From Oscillospiraceae bacterium (GTDB lineage Bacteria > Bacillota > Clostridia > Oscillospirales > Oscillospiraceae): a DNA stretch of 46,712 bases. Of this stretch, positions 29,988 through 41,988 are shown one piece after another. The DNA is taken from positions 1-46,712 of the forward strand of contig JAGAEW010000113.1 of the NCBI GenBank assembly GCA_017612935.1, read 5' to 3'. Made by a program: the position numbers and the translations under genes. Each line of letters begins with the position of its first letter. Positions within the stretch are counted from its first letter, which is position 1. Below the pieces are notes generated by a model that did no database searches, had not been told where the DNA came from, and saw only the letters and a program-made list of their open reading frames with translations.

Positions 29988-30962
29988 ATGAAAATGGACG
30001 AGCGATACAAGGAAATTCCGACGCTCTTCCCGGAGGCATTACGCCGGGATGTGGAAACGCTGCTGGAAAATCAGGGGACTCGGGTGGAGGAGCTTCGGCT
30101 CCGGGCTGGGACTGTAGCGAGCTGGGTAACGGCGGGCAGGGAAGCGCTTGTGCCCTGCCGGGGCAGCCCACACTGCGTGACGCCCCATGACCTGGAGGAA
30201 ATTATAAGCAGGGCTTCAGATTTTTCTGCCTATGCGGTGCAGGACCAGCTTCGTGCCGGATTTCTGACGTTACGGGGAGGACATCGCCTTGGAGTCTGTG
30301 GAACGGCGGTCAGCAGGGGCACAGAGATTCAGACGATCCGGGAGTATCAGGCCTTGAATCTGCGATTGGCAGGAGAGCGGCCCGGCTGTGCTGCGGAGCT
30401 CTTCAAGAGCCTGCGTTGCTCGCCGGGATCGATTTTAATTCTCGGTCCGCCCAGGGCGGGTAAGACAACGGTTCTGAGGGACCTGGTGCGTCTTCTCTCA
30501 GATCGGGGCGGACAGAGAATTGGGCTGCTGGACGAGCGCGGAGAAATTGCAGCCTGTCGGGATGGGGTTCCTCAACTCTGCGTGGGAAACCGAACGGATG
30601 TGCTCTCCGGTTGCCCAAAGCAGCTCGGAATCGAGTTGATGCTGCGCTCCATGTCTCCGGACTGGATTGCAGTGGATGAAATCACGGCGCTGGAGGACGC
30701 GGAGAGCCTCAGCCGTACTGTCTGCTGTGGGGTCCGATTTATTGCAACCGCCCATGGGGACGGTCCGGCTGACTTGCAGCGTCGTCCGGTTTATCGAAGG
30801 CTGCTGGAGCTGGGGGCGTTTGAACGGCTGGCTGTGATGCACCCGGATCGCAGCATACATTTTGAAAGGATGAAATATGGAACAGTTAAAATGGATGGCC
30901 GCCGGGCTGATTCTTGTCTCCTCGGCATGGGTGGGGTTTCATGCGGCGCTGCGTCTTCGTAG
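29988..30962 (+). CDS. spoIIIAA: Stage III sporulation protein AA (ATPase)
   Basis: Walker A GPPRAGKTT, VDEI Walker B, and EELRLRAG at the N-terminus. It is the first gene of an 8-gene spoIIIA array. Confidence 0.92.
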   Translation: MKMDERYKEIPTLFPEALRRDVETLLENQGTRVEELRLRAGTVASWVTAGREALVPCRGSPHCVTPHDLEEIISRASDFSAYAVQDQLRAGFLTLRGGHRLGVCGTAVSRGTEIQTIREYQALNLRLAGERPGCAAELFKSLRCSPGSILILGPPRAGKTTVLRDLVRLLSDRGGQRIGLLDERGEIAACRDGVPQLCVGNRTDVLSGCPKQLGIELMLRSMSPDWIAVDEITALEDAESLSRTVCCGVRFIATAHGDGPADLQRRPVYRRLLELGAFERLAVMHPDRSIHFERMKYGTVKMDGRRADSCLLGMGGVSCGAASS

Positions 30963-31386
30963 AACCGGGGAGGAGTTGCAGGAGCTCCGCGGCGCTTTGG
31001 ACCGTATGACCGGAGAAATTCGGTATGCCGGAACCCCCTTTGCCCCCCTTTGTAAGAGGCTTGCAGAGAGCAGTAGCGGCAGTGTGCGTCATTTTTTTCA
31101 GGGACTTGCGGCCGGAACGGAACATGGCGCCGGCTGTGGCCTGACTCGCCGGATCGCGCAGGAGGTGGGGCTGACACTGCCAAATTCGGCGCTCTCTGTT
31201 TTGGAGCGGCTGTTTGACGATTTCGGAAACAGGGACCTGGAAGCACAGCTCAGTCAGCTTTGCCTGGCGCAGGAGGAACTGTCCCGGCTGGAGACCGAGC
31301 TGCGCGTTCTGATGCCGGGGAAGTGCCGCAGCTATGAGGTTTTGGGAATTGTTACAGGTCTTTCTCTGTTGATTTTAGTGCTGTGA
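30877..31386 (+). CDS. spoIIIAB: Stage III sporulation protein AB
   Basis: 169 aa with N- and C-terminal TM segments and the right position in the operon. It overlaps the spoIIIAA 3' end by 86 nt. Confidence 0.85.
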   Translation: MEQLKWMAAGLILVSSAWVGFHAALRLRRTGEELQELRGALDRMTGEIRYAGTPFAPLCKRLAESSSGSVRHFFQGLAAGTEHGAGCGLTRRIAQEVGLTLPNSALSVLERLFDDFGNRDLEAQLSQLCLAQEELSRLETELRVLMPGKCRSYEVLGIVTGLSLLILVL

Positions 31387-31580
31387 TGGATATTGATTTA
31401 ATTTTTAAAATTGCGGCAATGGGAATCATTGTGTCGATTCTCAATCAGGTGTTGATTCGCTCCGGACGGGAGGAGCAGGCAACCATGACAACCCTTGCCG
31501 GGCTTGTAGTGGTGCTGATGCTGGTGGTGGAGAAAATCGCGGATCTGTTTGCACTGGTCAAGGAGTTGTTTCACTTTTGA
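31386..31580 (+). CDS. spoIIIAC: Stage III sporulation protein AC
   Basis: A 64-aa two-TM protein, MDIDLIFKIAAMGIIVSILNQVLIRSGREEQA. Confidence 0.9.
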   Translation: MDIDLIFKIAAMGIIVSILNQVLIRSGREEQATMTTLAGLVVVLMLVVEKIADLFALVKELFHF

Positions 31581-31966
31581 TTGACGATCTACTCAAGCTT
31601 TCGGCAATGGCGGTGATATCCTGCCTGCTGATTTTGACGGTCAAAAAGCAGGCTCCCGAGCTGGGGCTGATTCTGAGCCTCTGCGCCTGTGCCCTCGGAG
31701 CAGGCTTTTTGCTGGAGACCCTCAGACCGGTGCTGTTGCTGGCCGGGAGCCTGGCGGAAAAAGCGGGGCTGGAGCCGGAACTGCGTGCACCGCTGTGGAA
31801 GTGTCTCGGTTTGGGTTTGCTGACAGAGCTCTCCGCCGGTCTCTGCGCCGATGCGGGGGAAAGCGCTCTGGCAAAGCTGGTGGAGCTGGGCGGCGGGATT
31901 CTCTGTCTGGCTGTGAGTTTGCCCCTGCTGCAGGCGGTGCTGGCCCTGATTGAGGGACTGCTGTGA
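31577..31966 (+). CDS. spoIIIAD: Stage III sporulation protein AD
   Basis: 129 aa, multi-TM, TTG start coupled to the spoIIIAC stop. ...KKQAPELGLILSLCACAL. Confidence 0.88.
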   Translation: MIDDLLKLSAMAVISCLLILTVKKQAPELGLILSLCACALGAGFLLETLRPVLLLAGSLAEKAGLEPELRAPLWKCLGLGLLTELSAGLCADAGESALAKLVELGGGILCLAVSLPLLQAVLALIEGLL

Positions 31967-33051
31967 GAGGACTGATGCGGATATGCGCCCTGATTTTTCT
32001 GCTTCTGCCGATTTTGCATGGTACCGTCCGGGCAGTGGACCCTGCCGCAGAACTCAGAGCGGAGCTTGATCCGGAGGCGGGGCTGTCTGCAGAGCTCCTG
32101 GACAGGATCGGAAGCTATGACGGTGCAATCGAAGGCTTTGGGGACAAGCTGCTGCGTCTGGTTGGCAGTACGCTGGGACGGGTCAAAGAGCTTCATTTGC
32201 AGGAGGCGCTGGCTTGCGTCAGTATGATTCTTGCAGCCGCCCTTCTGTGTTCCCTGTTTGAGAACAGCACACACAGCGCCGGTCTGGCCCCGCTGGTGGG
32301 GGCGCTGACCATTACCGCTGCCTGTACCAGATCGGTGGATTCCATGATTTCCCTGGGAGCCGGAGTGATCCGGGAGCTGTGTCACTATTTCGGCCTGCTG
32401 CTGCCCACCATGTCCACGCTTCTGGCAGCCTCCGGTAATTTCTCAGCCGTGGCGGTTTCAAGCTTTGGAATAACGCTGCTGGAGGGACTGCTGGCCCTGG
32501 TCTCGGGCGTGATGGTGCCGTTGCTCTATGTGCTGCCGGCCCTGGCTGTGGCGGAGTATGGGCTGGGAATGAAGAATCTGGGACAACTCAGCGCCTTTGT
32601 AAAGTGGCTCTTGGTGACGATGGTGAAGGGGATTCTCTATGGATATTCTGGAATTCTCGCCTTTACAGGGCTTGTCTCCGGCAGTGTGGATGCCCAACGG
32701 CTGCGCTCTGTGCGTTCCGTGATTGCCGGAATGGTTCCGGTGGTGGGAAACATTGTTTCCGACGCCTCCGGCTCCTTGTTAAGCGCGGCGGCAAGCCTGA
32801 AAACAGCCGTAGGACTTTACGGAATGCTGGCAGTGTTCGGCCTGTGCCTGGGGCCTTTTTTCCAAATTGGGATTCAATACCTGGCTCTGAAACTGGCGGC
32901 AGTCCTTTGCGGCCTGTTCGGCCAGGGCAGCCAGAGCCCCTTGATCGAAAGACTGTCTCAGGTCATGGGGTTGATGCTGGCACTGACGGGAATTGCCTGC
33001 CTGCTGACCCTGATGATTCTTGTACTCTGTATTCGGACGGTGAACCTATGA
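31963..33051 (+). CDS. spoIIIAE: Stage III sporulation protein AE
   Basis: 362 aa with a signal peptide and a polytopic C-terminal part (VIAGMVPVVGNIVSDASGSLL). Confidence 0.9.
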   Translation: MRGLMRICALIFLLLPILHGTVRAVDPAAELRAELDPEAGLSAELLDRIGSYDGAIEGFGDKLLRLVGSTLGRVKELHLQEALACVSMILAAALLCSLFENSTHSAGLAPLVGALTITAACTRSVDSMISLGAGVIRELCHYFGLLLPTMSTLLAASGNFSAVAVSSFGITLLEGLLALVSGVMVPLLYVLPALAVAEYGLGMKNLGQLSAFVKWLLVTMVKGILYGYSGILAFTGLVSGSVDAQRLRSVRSVIAGMVPVVGNIVSDASGSLLSAAASLKTAVGLYGMLAVFGLCLGPFFQIGIQYLALKLAAVLCGLFGQGSQSPLIERLSQVMGLMLALTGIACLLTLMILVLCIRTVNL

Positions 33052-33524
33052 CGGCGATAAAGGCCTATCTTTTGCGGCTGGTCTGCTGCGGCTTTTTTGT
33101 CAGCCTGGCCACGTCCTTGCTGCGGGGCAAACGAAGCGGCAGGATTGTTGCGCTTTGCGGCGGCTGTCTGATGATACTGACGGCCATCCGGCCCCTGATG
33201 CGGGTGAATCTGTCAGCCCTGCCGGATTTGGCGACGGGGCTGACACAGGCGGAGCGCCGGACACTGGCAAGAGAGAAGAACGACGCCCTCTTGCAGAGGC
33301 TTGTGGAGGACCAAACCGTGTCGTGGTTGGAGGCACAGGCGGGTAAATTGGGGATGGTGGCGTCCTTCGCAGTGCAGGCCGTCGAGACGGCGGAGGGACT
33401 TTGGATCCCGCAACGGGTACAAATTACCGGGAACTGGACGGAGCAGCAGAGACAGCTGTTGTCGAAGCAAATGGAACGGGAACTGTCGCTGCCGCCGGAG
33501 CAGCAGGAATGGGAGGACGGATGA
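33048..33524 (+). CDS. spoIIIAF: Stage III sporulation protein AF
   Basis: MTAIKAYLLRLVCCGFFVSLATSLL, with two N-terminal TM segments. ATGA coupling on both sides. Confidence 0.85.
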   Translation: MTAIKAYLLRLVCCGFFVSLATSLLRGKRSGRIVALCGGCLMILTAIRPLMRVNLSALPDLATGLTQAERRTLAREKNDALLQRLVEDQTVSWLEAQAGKLGMVASFAVQAVETAEGLWIPQRVQITGNWTEQQRQLLSKQMERELSLPPEQQEWEDG

Positions 33525-34072
33525 AGCTGAGATGGGATCTGCCGGGAAAGATTCCGGTGTTTCTGGATCGCTATAAGCTTCCGATTCTGACGATTCTGAT
33601 CGGCTTGACCTTACTGCTTTGGTCTCCGGGGGAAAAGGCAGAGGGGAGTGAGTTCCCGGTGCAGACCCAGCCGGAGCAAAGCCAGCCCCAGGATGAGGGA
33701 GAACGCTATTGTGCCAGGACGGAGCAGGAGCTGGAGACGCTGCTGGCCCAGATCGATGGGGCGGGGCGGGTTCGGGTTATGCTGACCCTGCGGACCGGAC
33801 CCGCCGCGAATTATCAGAAGGACAGCAAGCGCACAAATTCGGGGGAGGGAGAGCGGCACAGTGAATCGCTGGAGGAAAAAACAGTGATTCTGAGCCGTGC
33901 AAGCGCATACAATGAACCAGCCATCGTAAGCACGGCGTATCCGGAGTTTCAGGGAGCCCTGATCGTCGCAGAGGGCGGTGCGGATGCAAAGATCCGTTAT
34001 CAACTCGCTGCTGCCGTATCGGCTCTGCTGGGACTTGGCGCTGACCAAATTACGGTCGTAAAAATGAAGTAA
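33521..34072 (+). CDS. spoIIIAG: Stage III sporulation protein AG
   Basis: N-terminal TM and a C-terminal ring-building motif region (VRVMLTL...PEFQGALIVAEGGADAKIRYQLAAAVSALLGLGADQITV). Confidence 0.9.
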   Translation: MKLRWDLPGKIPVFLDRYKLPILTILIGLTLLLWSPGEKAEGSEFPVQTQPEQSQPQDEGERYCARTEQELETLLAQIDGAGRVRVMLTLRTGPAANYQKDSKRTNSGEGERHSESLEEKTVILSRASAYNEPAIVSTAYPEFQGALIVAEGGADAKIRYQLAAAVSALLGLGADQITVVKMK

Positions 34073-34085
34073 CGGGGGATTGAAC

Positions 34086-34658
34086 ATGAAAACATGGAAA
34101 CGGAATGCCATTGTGGCAGCAGTCTTGGTTTTTGTCTGCGGCGGGATCTATCTAAACTGGCGTTATGAGGACAGCAGACCCTTCGACCTGGTTTCGACCT
34201 TGGACCAGACGAAGCTGATGGACGACGCGGCCCTGGTGATTCGAAACGATGAAACAGAACTGGAGCAGGTGGCGGCACAGCAGGGAGAGCAAAAGGATGG
34301 AGAAGATGCCGAGGCGGTCTTTGCCCGGATGCGGATGAGCCGCCAGCAGAGCCGGGACAGCGCCGTGCACACCCTGCAGGAGACAATTTCCTATGCCGGT
34401 GAAGATGAGGACGTCAGCGCCAGCACCCTAAAGCTGGAATCCATTGTCAACATGGCTCTGTCCGAAGCGTCCATAGAGAGTTTGGTGGTTTCCAAGGGCT
34501 ATGCGGAGTGTGTGGCCTACATGACAGAGGAGGGGATTGACCTGGCAGTGGCCGCCCAGGGCCTCTCTGAAAGCGATGTGGCCGTTCTGAGCGACATTGT
34601 GCTGTCCCAAACCGAATATGATCTTTCGCAAATTCGAATTATTGAGGTAAATTCCTGA
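34086..34658 (+). CDS. spoIIIAH: Stage III sporulation protein AH
   Basis: MKTWKRNAIVAAVLVFVCGGIYLNW TM anchor and a C-terminal YscJ/FliF-like region. It is the last gene of the operon. Confidence 0.85.
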   Translation: MKTWKRNAIVAAVLVFVCGGIYLNWRYEDSRPFDLVSTLDQTKLMDDAALVIRNDETELEQVAAQQGEQKDGEDAEAVFARMRMSRQQSRDSAVHTLQETISYAGEDEDVSASTLKLESIVNMALSEASIESLVVSKGYAECVAYMTEEGIDLAVAAQGLSESDVAVLSDIVLSQTEYDLSQIRIIEVNS

Positions 34659-34727
34659 AAATTACGGTTGTTTTTTTTGGGATTTGTGGTACAATGAATG
34701 AAAGCGTTTACAAAGGAGGATCATACC

Positions 34728-35060
34728 ATGGCAGAGAATAAAGATTACATGACCAGAGAATTGGAAGACGGAAGTCTGAATATCAGCGAGGATGTGCTCG
34801 TTACCATTGCCCTTGCTGCCGCCAATGATGTGGAGGGCGTGGTCAGCCTGAAAAACGACCGCAAGGGCGTCCGGGTAACGCTGAACGAGGATGACGTGGA
34901 GTTGGACTGCGCTCTGGTGGTTCTCTATGGCCATTCTGTAGTGGAGATTGCGAGGAATGTTCAGAACGCCGTGACCAACGCCGTTGAATCCATGACCGGC
35001 CTGAAGGTTGCCCGCGTGGATGTGAATGTGTGTGGCATTTCTATGGGGAAAGCCGGATGA
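34728..35060 (+). CDS. Asp23/Gls24-family alkaline shock protein
   Basis: ISEDVLVTIALAAANDVEGVV... and RVDVNVCGI. AAGGAGG RBS. Same position as B. subtilis yqhY, upstream of nusB. Confidence 0.88.
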   Translation: MAENKDYMTRELEDGSLNISEDVLVTIALAAANDVEGVVSLKNDRKGVRVTLNEDDVELDCALVVLYGHSVVEIARNVQNAVTNAVESMTGLKVARVDVNVCGISMGKAG

Positions 35061-35527
35061 ACAAAGGGCCGCGTATGACGAGATCGGCCGCCAGAGAGAT
35101 CGCCGTCCACCTGATTTATGCCGTACAGTGTACGGGGGAATCGGTGGAGACTGTGCTGTGCGACCGGTTTGAAGAGACGTATTATGCCCTCCTTTCCGCC
35201 GAAAATGAGGTCTACGCCGAAAAGCCCAACGGGAAGCAGCGCGAATATATCAGCTCTGTGGTGCAGGGCGTCTGTGACCGGCAACAGGAGCTGGATGGGT
35301 ATCTTGCAAAGTATTCCGTCGCTTGGAACGTCAGTCGGATTTCCCGGCTGGCCCGGGCAGTTATGGAGCTTGCCATGTATGAGGCCCTCTATGTGGAGGA
35401 TGTACCCATGAACGTCGCCATCAATGAGGCGGTCAAGCTGACACAAAAATATGAGGAGCAGGAGACGGTTGCCTTTGTCAACGGCATTCTTGGCAGCTTC
35501 TCCCGTGAACGGAAGACAGAAGCATGA
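35057..35527 (+). CDS. nusB: Transcription antitermination factor NusB
   Basis: SAAREIAVHLIY...RISRLARAVMELAMYE...PMNVAINEAVKLTQKY...FVNGILG. Confidence 0.92.
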   Translation: MNKGPRMTRSAAREIAVHLIYAVQCTGESVETVLCDRFEETYYALLSAENEVYAEKPNGKQREYISSVVQGVCDRQQELDGYLAKYSVAWNVSRISRLARAVMELAMYEALYVEDVPMNVAINEAVKLTQKYEEQETVAFVNGILGSFSRERKTEA

Positions 35528-37918: not shown

Positions 37919-38777
37919 AGAATGGAGCGCAGTAAACCGGCGTTTTGAAACCCGGCTGGCGCAGCTCTATCAGGAGGCTGCATCCGAGCCCCAGCAACGT
38001 CTGTTTGAGGCGATGAATTACAGCCTGCTGGCGGGAGGAAAGCGGTTGCGGCCTCTGCTGGTCTACGCCTTTTGCGAGGCCTGCGGCGGCTGTGCCGAGG
38101 AGGCGGACCCGGCGGCGCTGGCCGTTGAGATGCTTCACACCTACAGCCTGATCCACGACGACCTTCCCGCCATGGACAACGACGATTATCGCCGGGGCCG
38201 GCTGACCAGCCATAAGGTTTACGGTGAGGCCCTGGCAATTTTAGCGGGAGACGCACTGTTGACGGATGCCTTTCGGCTTCTGACGACAGGCATCCTGCCT
38301 GCTGGGAAGGCTGTCGCCTGCGTGGCAGTTCTGGCACAGAATGCCGGCCCCTACGGAATGGTTGGGGGGCAGGTGCTGGATATGGCCTCAGAGGAACGGA
38401 CCCTGAGTGAGGAGGAGGTGCGGAATATTCAGACCCGTAAAACCGGCTGCTTGATTCGCGCTGCCTGTGAAATGGGAGCAATTTGCGCCGGGGCGGATGC
38501 CGGGCAGCGAGAAGCCGCCCGGCGCTATGCCGATGGGATCGGCCTTGCGTTTCAGATTCGGGACGATGTGCTGGATGTGACAGGAGATGCCGCCAAGCTT
38601 GGCAAGGCCGTGGGGGTTGATGCCGAGAAGAATACCTTTGTCCGGCTTTACGGATTGGAGCGCTGCGCCGGAATGATCCACAGTGAAACTGCTGCAGCAG
38701 TGAATGCGCTTTCCTGTTTTCAAAAGCCAGATCTGCTGACGGATCTGGCCTGGTTTTTGGCGGAACGGGATCATTAA
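37902..38777 (+). CDS. ispA: Farnesyl diphosphate synthase (polyprenyl synthetase)
   Basis: GGKRLRP, FARM LIHDDLPAMDNDDYRRG, and SARM FQIRDDVLD. The start is uncertain (ATG at 37902 or 37872). Confidence 0.92.
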   Translation: MRSLNEEWSAVNRRFETRLAQLYQEAASEPQQRLFEAMNYSLLAGGKRLRPLLVYAFCEACGGCAEEADPAALAVEMLHTYSLIHDDLPAMDNDDYRRGRLTSHKVYGEALAILAGDALLTDAFRLLTTGILPAGKAVACVAVLAQNAGPYGMVGGQVLDMASEERTLSEEEVRNIQTRKTGCLIRAACEMGAICAGADAGQREAARRYADGIGLAFQIRDDVLDVTGDAAKLGKAVGVDAEKNTFVRLYGLERCAGMIHSETAAAVNALSCFQKPDLLTDLAWFLAERDH

Positions 38778-38864: not shown

Positions 38865-38893
38865 TTGTATATTTATTTAGAATATGTTATAAT
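38865..38893 (+). promoter_or_regulatory. Extended -10 SigA promoter (TTGTAT-N17-TGtTATAAT) in an AT-rich block upstream of the large ncRNA
   Basis: TTGTAT at 38865-38870, TG at 38885-38886, and TATAAT at 38888-38893. About 100 nt of A/T-rich sequence lies upstream. Confidence 0.65.
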
Positions 38894-38898
38894 CAAAA

Positions 38899-39510
38899 TG
38901 GTGGTGCTGTATCCTAGTCGGAACCGTCGATTACCAGGAAGGGCCTAAAAATCCTTTGAAGGGCATATCGATGAAGTCCCTGGTGCTTGCTTGTTTCGCC
39001 CAGATTCGGGTGGGTGCTGGGGGTTAAGGTTTCCGGGCGGCTGTCAATGGCATGACTGTTACGACCCGGTTACCGTGGAGACCTGCTTCTGTGCGGCCGC
39101 CGCACGTTTTTGTGGACAAGGACGGCGTACGGCGCAGGAGATGAACCTGCATTGCGGTGCGGTTAGCGTGCTGTGTGCAGTGTAGCCTGCCTTGCGTGGG
39201 TATGATGGGGAAAGAGGAGCCATGCGTACTTACCTGTGGCCACAGGCAAAGGCGATATTCTCTGGAAACCTTACCTGCAAAAGAGGCTAAGAGTCGACGG
39301 CCTTCGGGGTGGAAAACACCTAGGCAGTCTGAAAGGGATATGCTGCGGATTGCAGTGCGGACTCAGTGGCAATCGGGTAATGTGTACTGGCGACGGCACA
39401 AAGCAGACATGAAAAGGGAACTGCCCGTTCGGCGACGACGGGTTGTTTGCGGGGAAATCCAACCCGACCTAAGCCGCAAGATTTACGCAGCGTATTTCCA
39501 CCACAGTTGA
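38899..39510 (+). ncRNA. ole: Large structured noncoding RNA, most likely OLE (ornate, large, extremophilic) RNA. Boundaries are approximate.
   Basis: There is a 755-nt gap between ispA and the next CDS. About 610 nt lie downstream of a strong promoter. Only Cys/Arg-rich ORFs without an RBS are present. I can see many short helices and a terminal GTGGTG/CACCAC pairing. The xseAB-ispA-[RNA]-4TM protein-dxs-tlyA-nadK-argR-recN synteny is characteristic of OLE loci. Confidence 0.75.
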
Positions 39511-39532
39511 TAAATATTCAGAGGAACAAACG

Positions 39533-40153
39533 TTGAAATCCACACAAGACACATCAGACAAACAAGGCAGAAGACATAGGAAAAACGGAGCAAGGAACAA
39601 GTCTGCCTCCAAGGCCCGCTGGCTGATTACGATCTTTTTTTTGGCACTGACGATTTCCGCTGTTTTTTCTTTTTTTTCCCAACAACTGCTGGGCCGGGCC
39701 AGCTTATCCGGCGCATTTCTGATCCTTCTGGCAATTATAGCCATTGGCATCCTCTTTGATTTGCTGGGAGTTGCGGTTACGGCCGCTGAAGAAAAGCCCT
39801 TTCACTCCATGGCTTCCCGGAAGGTTCCGGGCGGCGTGGAAGGAATCTGGCTGCTTCGCAATGCCGGAAAGGTTTCTTCAGTCTGCAATGATGTTGTGGG
39901 CGACATCTGCGGCATTATCTCCGGTACGGCAGCGGCCGTGGTTGCGATTGAGACCTGGAACAGTACCCATGCCTTTTCTCAGCAGATGGTTCAGCTCTTG
40001 TTGTCCGCCCTTGTGGCAGCCCTGACAATCTTGGGCAAGGCATTTTGCAAGCAGATCGCGCTGGATAATTCCACAGCGATTGTTCAAAGCGCAGCACGGC
40101 TGATCTGGCGGTGCAAGCGACTATTTTCAAGGAAGTCAAAGAGAAAAAAATGA
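39533..40153 (+). CDS. oapA: OLE-associated membrane protein OapA-like (small 4-TM protein)
   Basis: 206 aa with a basic N-terminal tail (KQGRRHRKNGARNKSASKAR) and four hydrophobic segments. There is a conserved-looking acidic motif CNDVVGDICGIISG. It lies immediately 3' of the ncRNA and is ATGA-coupled to dxs. TTG start. Confidence 0.7.
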   Translation: MKSTQDTSDKQGRRHRKNGARNKSASKARWLITIFFLALTISAVFSFFSQQLLGRASLSGAFLILLAIIAIGILFDLLGVAVTAAEEKPFHSMASRKVPGGVEGIWLLRNAGKVSSVCNDVVGDICGIISGTAAAVVAIETWNSTHAFSQQMVQLLLSALVAALTILGKAFCKQIALDNSTAIVQSAARLIWRCKRLFSRKSKRKK

Positions 40154-41988
40154 ACGATCCATTTCAGTTTCCGAACTCCAGAGAACTGCGAAGTATGGAT
40201 GAAGCAGAGCTGTCGGCTCTTTGCAAACGGATTCGAAAATTTTTGATTGAAAACGTATCTAAAACCGGTGGACATTTGGCGTCCAACCTTGGTGTGGTGG
40301 AACTGATTGTCGCCATTCACCGCGTCTTTGATACTGAAACGGACCGGCTGGTGTTCGACGTGGGACATCAATCCTATGTGCATAAAATACTGACCGGTCG
40401 GGCAGACCGTTTTCCGACCCTGCGAAAGCTTGACGGTTTGGCAGGCTTTCCAAAGCCCGGCGAGAGCGTTCACGACGCATTTGTTGCCGGGCATGCATCC
40501 AACTCCGTTTCCGTTGCCCTCGGGATGGCCCGGGCGCGGACTTTGACGGGAAAGCAATACAATGTAATCGCTTTGATGGGCGACGGGGCCCTGACGGGAG
40601 GCCTTGCCTATGAGGGCCTCAACGATGCCGGCTCCAGCGGAGAGCCGCTGATTGTCATTCTCAATGACAACGGAATGTCCATTACTCCGAACGTAGGGGG
40701 AATGGCGAAGCATTTATCCAATATTCGCACCAAACCCAGCTACTTTGCGTGTAAAAAGGTCTGGAATGAGCTCACAAAAACCACGTCTGTGGGCCGCAGC
40801 GTTTACCGCGGTGTTCACCGCATAAAAGAGAATTTGAAAAAGCGGCTGATCAGCGCCAATACATTCAATGACATGGGCTTTGAGTATTACGGTCCGGTGG
40901 ACGGGCACGACATCAAAAAGCTCGTCTGGTTGCTGCAAATGGCGAGGGACCTGAAAAAACCCGTGATTCTCCATGTGACCACGCAAAAGGGCCGGGGATA
41001 TCCTCCTGCGGAACGGAATCCTGACTTATACCACGGCGTCGGAGCCTTTGATCCCACGGTAGGGCTGAAACCCAGTCAAGCTGTTACCTTCTCCGATACC
41101 TTCGGAAAGACCCTTTCGACCCTTGCTGCCCGCAATCCCCGCGTCTGCGCCATTACTGCCGCCATGCAGAGTGGCACGGGGCTGGATAACTTTGCAAAGT
41201 CCTATCCGGATCGGTTTTTTGACGTGGGCATTGCGGAAGGACACGCTGTGGCTATGGCCGGCGGTCTGGCAAAGCAGGGAATGTTGCCGGTTCTTGCGAT
41301 TTATTCCACCTTTTTCCAACGCTCCTTTGATATGTTGATTCACGATATTGCACTTCTGAATTTACATGTGGTGTTTGCAGTGGATCGGGCCGGGCTCGTG
41401 GGAGCGGACGGCGAAACCCATCACGGTGTCTTCGACGTTGGCTTTCTGCGGCAGGTTCCCGGAATGCAGATTCTCTGCCCTGCCAATCAGGCCGAGCTGG
41501 CGAAAATGCTGGAGCAAGCGCTGTTTTCCATGACCGGCCCCGTGGCGGTGCGTTATCCCAGGGGCGGCGATGAGGCCTATCGTGAGCTTTCCGCTCAGTC
41601 AATCCTCCGGGCGGGAACTGCAATTACCCTTTGCGCTTACGGCACGACGGTAAATTCTATTTTGGAGGCCGCCGAGCTGCTGCATCAGCGGGGGATTGAG
41701 GCTGAGGTGGTCAAGCTCAATCAAATTCGGCCGATTGACCCGGATTGGAAGGCCTCCGCCCTTAGAACGGGAGCCTTCCTGATGGTAGAGGAATGCCTGC
41801 AGCACGGCGGCATTTATGATGAAATTGCTTCCGATCCCGCGCTGCAGACCCTTCGACACCGGGGGATGGATCTCGGCATAGGCTTCGTGTCCCACGGAAG
41901 CTGTTCCGAGCTGCAAAAGCGGGCAGGGATTGACGCGCAAAGTGTCTGTGAAGCAGCCGTCGCGCTTTTGAAGGGAGAAACTACATGA
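40150..41988 (+). CDS. dxs: 1-deoxy-D-xylulose-5-phosphate synthase
   Basis: GGHLASNLGVVEL, VFDVGHQSYVHKILTGR, and TPP motif GDGALTGGLAYEGLN. Confidence 0.96.
   Translation: MNDPFQFPNSRELRSMDEAELSALCKRIRKFLIENVSKTGGHLASNLGVVELIVAIHRVFDTETDRLVFDVGHQSYVHKILTGRADRFPTLRKLDGLAGFPKPGESVHDAFVAGHASNSVSVALGMARARTLTGKQYNVIALMGDGALTGGLAYEGLNDAGSSGEPLIVILNDNGMSITPNVGGMAKHLSNIRTKPSYFACKKVWNELTKTTSVGRSVYRGVHRIKENLKKRLISANTFNDMGFEYYGPVDGHDIKKLVWLLQMARDLKKPVILHVTTQKGRGYPPAERNPDLYHGVGAFDPTVGLKPSQAVTFSDTFGKTLSTLAARNPRVCAITAAMQSGTGLDNFAKSYPDRFFDVGIAEGHAVAMAGGLAKQGMLPVLAIYSTFFQRSFDMLIHDIALLNLHVVFAVDRAGLVGADGETHHGVFDVGFLRQVPGMQILCPANQAELAKMLEQALFSMTGPVAVRYPRGGDEAYRELSAQSILRAGTAITLCAYGTTVNSILEAAELLHQRGIEAEVVKLNQIRPIDPDWKASALRTGAFLMVEECLQHGGIYDEIASDPALQTLRHRGMDLGIGFVSHGSCSELQKRAGIDAQSVCEAAVALLKGETT

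Follow-up and report, generated by a model that had tools for sequence, protein, structure and literature searches.

The 206-residue protein encoded between the OLE RNA gene and dxs in the window (the whole 46,712-nucleotide stretch of Oscillospiraceae DNA analysed here) is very probably OapA, partnering OLE RNA; this identification is a sequence-based one, in which the protein was set against reference OapA by published hallmarks only. Few large bacterial RNAs of unknown function are as intriguing as the OLE ribonucleoprotein (RNP), of which OapA is the only protein partner that is indispensable. There is no new biology in the locus: ole-oapA-dxs is the textbook arrangement, here in a gut anaerobe, and the protein adds a member to a known family. 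The initial annotation had already called it OapA-like, and its adjacency to OLE, four transmembrane (TM) helices, basic face, DxxxD motif and likeness to CNNM/CorB all support that proposal.

OapA, an integral-membrane protein, binds OLE RNA and keeps the OLE RNP at the cytoplasmic membrane. As summarised in PMC12265935, the Halalkalibacterium halodurans protein binds OLE RNA at a ratio of 2:1 or more and brings the RNA to the membrane (Block 2011). The likeness of the window protein to OapA of H. halodurans (BH2780 / WP_010898928.1) and Clostridium botulinum (CLB_RS09010) extends from the gene order ispA-ole-oapA-dxs to a length of about 200 amino acids (21 kDa in H. halodurans), four predicted TM helices and a basic cytoplasmic face, as well as a strictly conserved DxxxD motif, weak CNNM/DUF21 similarity and a predicted fold that matches CorB. 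Unlike in the reference proteins, the host is an uncultured ruminant-gut Oscillospiraceae bacterium and not an extremophile, the gene starts with TTG, and the stop codon of oapA and the start codon of dxs overlap (ATGA).

The reading frame, its start and the OLE RNA locus

The elements of the locus, from the RNA to the downstream gene, are the following:

38885–39517, plus strand: OLE RNA gene, full-length form (Rfam RF01071 match)
39520–39525, plus strand: Shine-Dalgarno sequence AGAGGA, with a 7-nt spacer to the oapA TTG start
39533–40153, plus strand: oapA orthologue, 206 aa, TTG start, end including the TGA stop (from the ORF, homologues, synteny, Pfam and model)
40150–40153, plus strand: ATGA overlap of the oapA stop and dxs start (sequence)
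40150–41988, plus strand: dxs, 1-deoxy-D-xylulose-5-phosphate synthase (Pfam)

The match to RF01071 covers model positions 1–616 of 616 at 433.7 bits (E = 3.7e-124), against a gathering score of 50. It ends at 39517, 15 nt before the TTG, while the last modelled base pair, at 39496, lies 36 nt before it; the initial annotation had put the start of the ORF about 20 nt after the structured element, which is a fair description. Its 206-aa ORF with a TTG start is likewise borne out, with a conserved frame and the AGAGGA sequence 7 nt upstream. The TTG is the earliest start codon 3' of the in-frame stop at 39470. In-frame ATG codons occur in the ORF at residues 93 and 152 only, and starting at either would remove two helices or more. 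Around the start the RNA is unstructured (unpaired in the centroid structure, z = 0.89).

Could the ORF have been mis-called, being either a fortuitous frame in the sequence that flanks OLE on its 3' side or a gene whose true start is elsewhere, so that the basic amino-terminal tail is not translated? The start is TTG rather than ATG, spurious ORFs are numerous in high-GC DNA, and the annotated starts of the relatives disagree, giving lengths from 165 to 303 aa. Against this, 80 genomes share the frame at 41–77% identity, more than expected by chance, and the invariant motifs are kept with it. A GTG or TTG is used at the equivalent position in 76 of the 80 relatives, and an SD-like motif precedes the chosen start in 64 of them. 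Trp30 and a basic tail are found upstream of TM1 in every member, and the first ATG after the well-placed TTG (aa 93) falls within the conserved core. A mis-called ORF is hardly conceivable on this evidence, and both a spurious ORF and a downstream start were rejected on the grounds of the conserved frame, the SD sequence and the position of the ATG codons inside the core.

The order of genes in the neighbourhood is nusB-xseA-xseB-ispA-ole-oapA-dxs-tlyA-nadK-argR-recN. In the literature, oapA is the commonest direct downstream neighbour of ole, and argR is often close by (PMC12265935, PMC10898510). The protein is reported to be exclusive to organisms that contain ole and to be the one most strongly correlated with OLE (PMC9723947, PMC11332333). 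Co-occurrence of RNA and protein, which the initial annotation had raised as a point to check, was found throughout the synteny sample, the best 80 of more than 566 matches: in 79 of the 79 loci that could be tested, OLE is encoded upstream in the same orientation (the sequence ahead of the gene in the 80th runs to just 26 nt), and dxs lies downstream in 80 of 80. Because the sample consists of the best 80 matches, this co-occurrence covers one order-level clade.

These data also bear on whether the protein might be a stand-alone, minimal CNNM/CorB-type cation transporter, next to OLE by virtue of a conserved housekeeping cluster and without physical partnership. The genes xseAB, ispA, dxs, nadK, argR and recN do form a widely conserved cluster, the weak similarity to PF01595 is recurrent and the predicted fold is CorB-like. 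In two loci (L043 and L065) a lipoprotein gene lies between OLE and the oapA ORF, so strict adjacency of the two is dispensable. However, both of these loci still have OLE upstream, as do all the other testable ones, and the reported exclusive occurrence of oapA in ole organisms points the same way. True CNNM proteins stand apart from this small family, CBS and CorC regulatory domains are absent from it, and direct binding is known for the H. halodurans orthologue from Block 2011, as relayed in PMC12265935. A transporter with no tie to OLE is thus very improbable, and we retain OapA as the preferred identification.

The homologue search returned 5,882 homologues. In a library of 1.84 billion proteins clustered at 50% identity, 1,292 clusters reach E<=1e-3; the family is compact, the best 150 clusters being nearly all standalone proteins of 160–270 aa. 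Neither the window protein nor any of 84 relatives falls into an NCBIfam family, and ten distant cluster representatives, from Butyricicoccus and Bacillota MAGs, are all called 'hypothetical protein'. OapA carries this label throughout public data because Pfam and NCBIfam are without a model for it, and for want of one, orthologues in the thousands remain unannotated. For natural sequence variation in OLE and OapA, ruminant Oscillospiraceae appear to be a rich source. Among the small ORFs of the window that were scanned, none encodes a KOW-like or L7Ae-like protein; the initial annotation saw neither oapB nor oapC, which stands for these ORFs, yet it is uninformative for a window of 46.7 kb. 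The OLE RNA has a GNRA loop at the putative OapB site, and for a full-length RNA of this kind the published pattern would predict oapB (ybzG) elsewhere in the genome, together with no more than one MpfA; oapC corresponds to ybxF.

Architecture and topology of the protein

From the amino- to the carboxy-terminus, the protein consists of the following parts:

39533–39619, plus strand: basic amino-terminal tail, aa 1–29, 10 Lys/Arg, net charge +8, predicted cytoplasmic
39620–39676, plus strand: TM1, about aa 30–48, an extra amino-terminal helix without CNNM counterpart (hydropathy)
39704–39787, plus strand: TM2, about aa 58–85, carrying the invariant Asp76 (39758–39760) (hydropathy)
39788–39880, plus strand: predicted cytoplasmic loop, aa 86–116 (EEKPFHSMA...), net positive, two short helices in the model
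39881–39949, plus strand: TM3, about aa 117–139, holding the CNDVVGDICG block (hydropathy, alignments)
39890–39904, plus strand: DxxxD motif, Asp120-Val-Val-Gly-Asp124, the OapA signature, invariant in the alignment
39983–40048, plus strand: TM4, about aa 151–172, ending in the start of a GKAxGK-type motif (Gly168, Lys169, Ala170) (hydropathy, alignments)
40049–40150, plus strand: basic amphipathic carboxy-terminal tail, aa 173–206, net charge +9 (aa 173–205), predicted cytoplasmic

The TM segments were assigned by Kyte-Doolittle hydropathy together with an AF2 model. The model is of moderate confidence (pLDDT 67, pTM 0.53). Its helices at residues 23–55, 58–84, 111–143 and 148–178 match the four hydropathy segments, placed at about 30–48, 58–85, 121–139 and 152–172; two further short helices (88–95 and 101–109) are located in the loop between TM2 and TM3, and another (180–204) in the carboxy-terminal tail. 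The amino-terminal tail is likely disordered, because residues 1–23 have pLDDT values below 50. The initial annotation had described four hydrophobic helices, a strongly basic amino-terminal tail and paired aspartates inside a membrane helix; the helices and the tail are as described, and the aspartates, Asp120 and Asp124 of the CNDVVGDICG block, are positioned at the cytoplasmic end of TM3.

The carboxy-terminal tail, not stressed in that annotation, is as basic as the amino-terminal one. In a diverse alignment of 84 family members (31–49% identity), the net charge is positive for the amino-terminal tail in 84 of 84, for the TM2-TM3 loop in 80 of 84 and for the carboxy-terminal tail in 84 of 84, while loops 1 and 3 are neutral. 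By the positive-inside rule, the face that carries the two tails and the TM2-TM3 loop is taken as cytoplasmic. The protein is therefore predicted to have four TM helices with both termini inside, the amino-terminal tail, TM2-TM3 loop and carboxy-terminal tail lying on one, presumably cytoplasmic, face. Contact of the amino-terminal tail with RNA is plausible.

Seven residues are invariant in the diverse alignment: Asp76, Asp120, Gly123, Asp124, Gly131, Lys169 and Lys173, the last being the first residue of the carboxy-terminal tail. Asp76 is present in 84 of 84 members, as are Asp120, Gly123 and Asp124; in the alignment of 81 sequences (the window protein and the 80 loci), Asp120 and Asp124 are at least 95% conserved. 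In the TM2-TM3 loop, Pro89, Phe90, His91 and Met93 are conserved, and in the region of TM1, Trp30, Ser42 and Ser49. The amino-terminal tail, with a median of 25 aa and 8 Lys/Arg, is conserved in charge but not in sequence. The invariant core amounts to a short list of testable residues for the proposed cation site and RNA-binding face.

The number of helices in the mature protein deserves attention, since CorB has three TM helices (PMC11332333) and the match to CNNM in Pfam does not start until residue 64. The amino-terminus of C. botulinum OapA has been handled as a signal sequence (PMC12265935). Residues 30–48 could be a cleaved or non-structural signal, leaving a mature CorB-like unit of three TM helices with the amino-terminus out and the carboxy-terminus in; the basic tail would then be a mere n-region, never in contact with OLE RNA, which would be met by the TM2-TM3 loop and the carboxy-terminal tail. 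The conservation of the tail in charge rather than sequence, its disorder in the model and the lower pLDDT of TM1 (52–68) than of the core would fit such an arrangement. However, the hydrophobic stretch, at some 19–23 residues, matches a TM helix in length and not an h-region, and the tail is far longer and more basic than the usual n-region. Trp30, Ser42 and Ser49 are conserved, whereas no conserved AXA-type cleavage motif was found near TM1 in the diverse members, and the primary literature gives OapA four TM helices (PMC12265935, PMC11332333). We consider a signal sequence unlikely and describe the protein as having four TM helices.

Relationship to CNNM/CorB proteins and the conserved aspartates

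Helices TM2 to TM4 are, as judged from sequence and predicted fold, a divergent CNNM/CorB-like core, with Asp76 in TM2 and Asp120 and Asp124 at the inner end of TM3. The CNNM/DUF21 family PF01595 aligns to residues 64–199 of the window protein over profile positions 2–132, with a score of 14.5 bits that is below the cutoff of 28.4. It is the sole recurrent Pfam family, with matches in 68 of the 77 close members and in 54 of the 84 diverse ones (best E 3.1e-10). When the moderate-confidence model was compared with the PDB using Foldseek, the top four matches were to MtCorB (7M1T and 7M1U), which are weak in absolute terms (E = 0.016–0.25, TMq 0.35–0.40). MtCorB, in entry 7M1U, is also the published top structural match of H. 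halodurans OapA (PMC11332333). Searches of PDB sequences with phmmer and with profiles from the close and the diverse alignment (hmmsearch) retrieved no CNNM, CorB or OapA chain. Matches in the PDB to a coronavirus E2 fragment and to NDUFV1 of complex I were dismissed as chance.

OapA has been placed as the next-closest cluster beneath true CNNM proteins, with weak CNNM similarity, and DxxxD is distinctive of OapA and missing from CNNM domains (PMC11332333). What the window protein shares with the CNNM/DUF21 domain of MtCorB is a helical membrane core, the top fold match in the PDB, and a probable tie to divalent cations. Differences are the additional amino-terminal TM helix and the DxxxD motif, the score below the Pfam gathering threshold, and a family profile that retrieves no CNNM protein from the PDB. 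Unlike in MpfA, CorB and CorC, there is no CBS-pair or CorC/HlyC domain: neither CBS nor CorC gave a match in the window protein, which ends 34 residues after TM4. A canonical CNNM/MpfA/CorB Mg2+ transporter was rejected, given the sub-threshold PF01595 score and the absence of these two domains.

A further difference may lie after the last TM helix, where CNNM domains presumably have their characteristic, highly conserved proline, which OapA is described as lacking. In the diverse members, residues 160–182 include no conserved proline, and the GKAxGK motif is present there instead.

The dominant-negative PM1 allele of H. halodurans OapA changes both aspartates of the DxxxD motif, which are strictly conserved (PMC9723947, PMC7936274). 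The initial annotation had named one functionally critical aspartate in OapA, which was essentially right, the literature giving two. The DxxxD motif is at 120/124 in the window protein and at 100/104 in reference OapA, an offset that fits an amino-terminal tail about 20 residues longer. Tentatively, the triad of Asp76, Asp120 and Asp124 may be a working cation site.

By extension from H. halodurans OapA, in so far as that work (Block 2011, Harris 2018, Harris 2019) is summarised in PMC12265935 and PMC11332333, the window protein would dimerise and bind OLE cooperatively via its basic cytoplasmic surface. On the same basis, the acidic intramembrane site would bind or transport a divalent cation, Mg2+, and OLE would take the regulatory role that the CBS and CorC domains have in MpfA/CorB transporters.

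Expression with OLE RNA and dxs

The gene downstream, proposed as dxs in the initial annotation, is confirmed as such by Pfam (DXP_synthase_N, E = 3.7e-112, plus transketolase domains), and the ATGA overlap noted there is real, at 40150–40153. A literal ATGA overlap occurs in only six of the 80 relatives (L001–L005 and L008), all among the closest ones. In the others, 9 to 100 nt separate oapA from dxs; taking all 80 loci together, the gap has a median of 14 nt and nowhere exceeds 100 nt.

Contigs from rumen metatranscriptomes cross both junctions: OLE to oapA is spanned by X25 (39387–39850) and X26 (39463–39876), and oapA to dxs by X25 (40023–40173) and X34 (40049–40217). These junction-crossing contigs are metatranscriptomic and of low depth (2–8), and carry-over of DNA is possible in them. 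No terminator-like site was found between OLE, oapA and dxs. With the short gaps, these observations support the suggestion of the initial annotation that the RNA, the protein and dxs form one expression unit. Translation of OapA would begin at a weak TTG, in an open leader rich in A, and in the sub-clade of the window, ribosomes that finish oapA could re-initiate on dxs via the ATGA.

A more elaborate scheme can be drawn for this sub-clade of ruminant-gut Oscillospiraceae, in which the TTG after OLE, the ATGA coupling and the amino-terminal tail together constitute a regulatory relay. Only those OLE transcripts that escape 3'-end formation would be translated, translation of OapA would be obligatorily coupled to that of DXP synthase, and the unusually long basic tail would be an extra, clade-specific arm gripping the RNA. 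If true, this would tie assembly of the membrane OLE RNP directly to flux into isoprenoid synthesis (undecaprenyl and membrane-lipid carrier), but we regard the relay as a long shot.

At the upstream end, one further element was located:

38885–38893, plus strand: possible extended -10 element for OLE, TGtTATAAT (read by eye)

A consensus promoter scan upstream of OLE called no promoter; the putative element went uncalled because a good -35 element is absent. RNA contig coverage in the rumen metatranscriptomes starts at about 38898–38918 and is zero across the 3' end of ispA. OLE appears to run from its own promoter, with a minority of transcripts reading on into oapA and dxs. In the contigs, OLE is covered to depths from the hundreds to over 1,000, versus 0–8 for the downstream genes, which places the steady-state level of OLE in the rumen far above that of its co-transcribed partner mRNA.

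The open reading frame between OLE and dxs

The 206-residue open reading frame (ORF) between the OLE RNA and dxs is a real, conserved gene, and its product can be identified with high confidence as OapA, the partner of OLE. It is a new, unannotated member of a known family in its canonical genomic setting, and is ordinary for OLE biology. The region contains the following features:

38885–39517, + strand: full-length OLE RNA, matching Rfam RF01071 over positions 1–616 of 616 at 433.7 bits (gathering score 50; E = 3.7e-124)
39390–39393: GNRA tetraloop (GCGA), in a hairpin aligned to OLE model positions ~480–499
39520–39525, + strand: Shine-Dalgarno sequence AGAGGA, 7 nt spacer to the TTG
39533–40153, + strand: ORF of 206 residues, TTG start, 15 nt past the end of the OLE match
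40150–40153, + strand: ATGA overlap of the ORF stop with the dxs ATG (40150 onward is dxs)

The TTG codon is located 36 nt beyond the last modelled OLE base pair; the initial annotation had placed it about 20 nt past the structured element, in agreement with these distances. It is the earliest possible start following an in-frame stop at 39470 and has a Shine-Dalgarno sequence, while the only in-frame ATG codons (93 and 152) would each cost at least two helices, which upholds this start over one located elsewhere. The leader is A-rich and unstructured, with a wholly unpaired centroid (z = 0.89 versus shuffled sequences). Among 80 related loci, where the start was chosen heuristically as the first one after OLE preceded by a Shine-Dalgarno sequence, the codon is GTG in 45, TTG in 31 and ATG in 4, with a Shine-Dalgarno sequence before it in 64. 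The GTG and TTG starts (76 of 80) may limit how much OapA is made in comparison with the abundant RNA.

At the downstream end, the proposed ATGA overlap is present, and the next gene is identified as dxs by Pfam (DXP_synthase_N, E = 3.7e-112). The gene order, also from Pfam, is nusB, a TsaD-like gene, xseA, xseB, ispA, OLE, the ORF and dxs, followed by an S4/FtsJ (TlyA-type) methyltransferase gene, nadK, argR and recN. This agrees with the published ole neighbourhood, in which oapA is the commonest immediate downstream neighbour (PMC12265935) and argR is often near (PMC10898510). Further upstream (333–728 and 30877–35527), the context is of the spore-former type, with YabP (333–728), spoIIIA operon genes (SpoIIIAC/AD family, 31383–31966), Asp23 (34698–35060) and nusB. 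In published work OLE correlates with sporulation genes, which this context fits.

The 80 loci are the best of more than 566 relatives recovered with one genome per species, and belong to Oscillospiraceae, Faecousia, Avilachnospira and comparable metagenome-assembled genomes from gut or rumen; the window sequence itself occurs in goat and bovine gut metagenome DNA runs. When these loci were screened for the co-occurrence of protein and RNA, OLE was located upstream on the same strand in 79 of 80 (nhmmer with the window OLE), the exception, L061, having only 26 nt of upstream sequence, and dxs downstream in all 80 (tblastn). Between the ORF and dxs the median gap is 14 nt and the largest 100 nt, and the ATGA overlap occurs in just six loci, all among the closest relatives. 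In two loci (L043:3536–5926 and L065:3607–5916), a putative lipoprotein gene of about 770–800 residues, whose signal peptide contains an LTACG lipobox, separates OLE from oapA, and OLE is about 2.4–2.6 kb upstream. Adjacency of OLE and ORF is therefore usual, not obligatory.

In several relatives (proteins P0008 and P0105, loci L021, L047, L054, L056, L060 and L075), the longest ORF or the public oapA call reaches 90–240 nt back into OLE, giving 250–300 residues; such calls look like a systematic annotation artefact from the unannotated non-coding RNA. Spurious ORFs of 64 residues (38991–39185) and 117 residues (39157–39510) are also contained within the window OLE.

In H. halodurans, the GNRA loop at the tip of P13 is needed for OapB binding. 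The window OLE keeps a GNRA loop and is therefore of the full-length type; this would be compatible with an OapB partner whose gene probably lies at another site in the genome. As initially noted, oapB and oapC are not visible in the window, where no scanned small ORF is KOW-like or L7Ae-like; the two genes are not normally linked to ole. For this reason, and because they are carried by about 60% and 45% of OLE-containing organisms, respectively (PMC11332333), the non-finding is uninformative.

Transcription of OLE, oapA and dxs

No terminator-like site is present between OLE, the ORF and dxs, and rumen metatranscriptome contigs cross both junctions. Contigs from sets X25 (39387–39850) and X26 (39463–39876) extend from OLE into the ORF, each with two mismatches, and contigs from X25 (40023–40173) and X34 (40049–40217) cross the ORF/dxs overlap with none. 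Contig depths of 2–8 are low enough that DNA carry-over is possible. Together these observations are consistent with one transcription unit whose promoter lies shortly before OLE, and they support the single expression unit proposed in the initial annotation. Contig depth, a poor measure of expression, ranges from hundreds to more than 1,000 for OLE (X27 and X29), to conserved parts of which OLE RNAs of related species can align, 0–8 for the ORF and dxs region, and 0 for the 3' end of ispA. The first RNA coverage is seen near 38898–38918. Together with the -10 sequence and the hairpin described below, the coverage suggests that OLE is transcribed from its own promoter rather than only processed from a long operon transcript; OLE would accumulate far above the read-through mRNA.

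By eye, an extended -10 sequence, TGtTATAAT, can be read at 38885–38893, the 5' edge of the OLE match. Within ispA, whose stop is at 38777, the final 50 nt contain a 10-bp terminator-like hairpin with a T-run (38726–38758). Contigs of X27, X28 and X29 contain internal joints that skip 72–283 nt of OLE within 38981–39451 (38981 to 39265, 38983 to 39170, 38992 to 39140, 39200 to 39347, 39377 to 39451 and 39379 to 39452). The joints may stem from shorter OLE variants in other species aligned on conserved flanks, from reverse transcriptase jumping across stable helices, or from errors of assembly.

Membrane topology and conserved residues

The protein starts with a basic tail (residues 1–29, ten Lys/Arg, net charge +8), followed by four hydrophobic segments at approximately residues 30–48, 58–85, 121–139 and 152–172, and ends in an equally basic C-tail (residues 173–205, net +9). 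The basic N-tail, the four helices and the paired-aspartate segment within a helix (DVVGD, residues 120–124) are as first described. When the window protein is aligned with the 80 locus-derived proteins, the block CNDVVGDICG is essentially invariant, and every member has K/R-rich N- and C-tails. In a diverse alignment of 84 sequences, 31–49% identical to the window protein, invariance is limited to seven columns: D76, D120, G123, D124, G131, K169 and K173. Net charge is positive for the N-tail and the C-tail in all 84 and for the TM2–TM3 loop in 80; the other two loops are neutral. According to the positive-inside rule, this gives a four-helix topology with both termini inside and the three basic segments on the cytoplasmic face; TM3 then carries D120 and D124 at its inner end, and TM2 carries D76.

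The N-terminus of C. botulinum OapA has been treated as a signal sequence (PMC12265935). Against this, the hydrophobic stretch is of transmembrane-like length, TM1 contains conserved polar positions (W30, S42 and S49 are conserved) and no conserved AXA-type cleavage motif is present in this region of the diverse alignment. The suggestion in the initial annotation that the N-tail may contact RNA is plausible; the tail is conserved in charge only and modelled as disordered. The C-tail and the TM2–TM3 loop are at least equally good candidates, and K169 and K173 are invariant.

Relation to OapA and the CNNM family

Published OapA is a 21 kDa protein with four predicted transmembrane helices and a conserved positive cluster on the cytoplasmic face (PMC12265935, PMC9723947). 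Its gene nearly always stands in tandem with ole and is confined to organisms that contain ole (PMC9723947). The protein has weak homology to the MpfA CNNM/DUF21 domain, with PF01595 scores clustering just below true CNNM proteins, and compared with CNNM domains it has a DxxxD motif and lacks the conserved proline (PMC11332333). The dominant-negative PM1 allele of H. halodurans changes two aspartates described as strictly conserved (PMC7936274). PMC9723947 lists the substitutions as D100A/D104A in its main text and as D101A/D104A in its supplementary strain table; the DxxxD description fits D100/D104. Compared with this published description, the window protein shares the tandem position with ole, the four predicted helices, the basic segments on the predicted cytoplasmic face, the DxxxD motif and the weak CNNM/DUF21 similarity, in line with the OapA identity first proposed.

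Profile searches assign the protein to no family with confidence, and no Pfam or NCBIfam model claims it. The sole recurrent Pfam family is PF01595, with 14.5 bits (cutoff 28.4) for the window protein over residues 64–199 (profile positions 2–132); hits to this family occur in 68 of 77 close relatives and in 54 of 84 diverse ones (best E = 3.1e-10). An AlphaFold2 model from a 77-sequence alignment is of moderate quality (pLDDT 67, pTM 0.53; about 75–80 for core residues 60–140). When the model is compared with the PDB by Foldseek, the four best matches are to the archaeal CNNM protein MtCorB (7M1T and 7M1U, probability 0.95–1.00), with scores that are weak in absolute terms (E = 0.016–0.25, TMq 0.35–0.40); lower matches look like noise. 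Sequence-profile searches of the PDB gave nothing relevant.

A word-indexed search found 5,882 homologues at E ≤ 1e-3 among 8,000 candidates scored, the top 120 being 59–100% identical and almost all 190–215 residues long. An exhaustive profile search over 1.84 billion cluster representatives gave 1,292 clusters at E ≤ 1e-3, of which 978 reach E ≤ 1e-10 and 477 reach E ≤ 1e-30; nearly all of the top 150 are standalone proteins of 160–270 residues. The family is therefore compact and stays separate from the CNNM/CorB transporters, which form a very large family.

By analogy with H. halodurans, OapA would dimerise and bind OLE cooperatively on its basic cytoplasmic surface, tethering the OLE ribonucleoprotein to the membrane, and OLE may do the regulatory work of the CBS and CorC domains found in MpfA/CorB. 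The acidic residues D76, D120 and D124 of the CorB-like core would form a divalent-cation site, a function that we propose tentatively. This case adds a little to OLE biology: an invariant core of seven residues with D76 as a third membrane aspartate, mostly non-ATG starts, ATGA coupling to dxs that is restricted to one clade, evidence from metatranscriptomes, and the finding that OapA lacks a curated HMM. Pfam-A and NCBIfam release 20 contain no OapA model; a curated one would annotate thousands of genes. The named homologues are labelled "hypothetical protein", and P0059, from JGI, bears the name "CBS domain containing-hemolysin-like protein".
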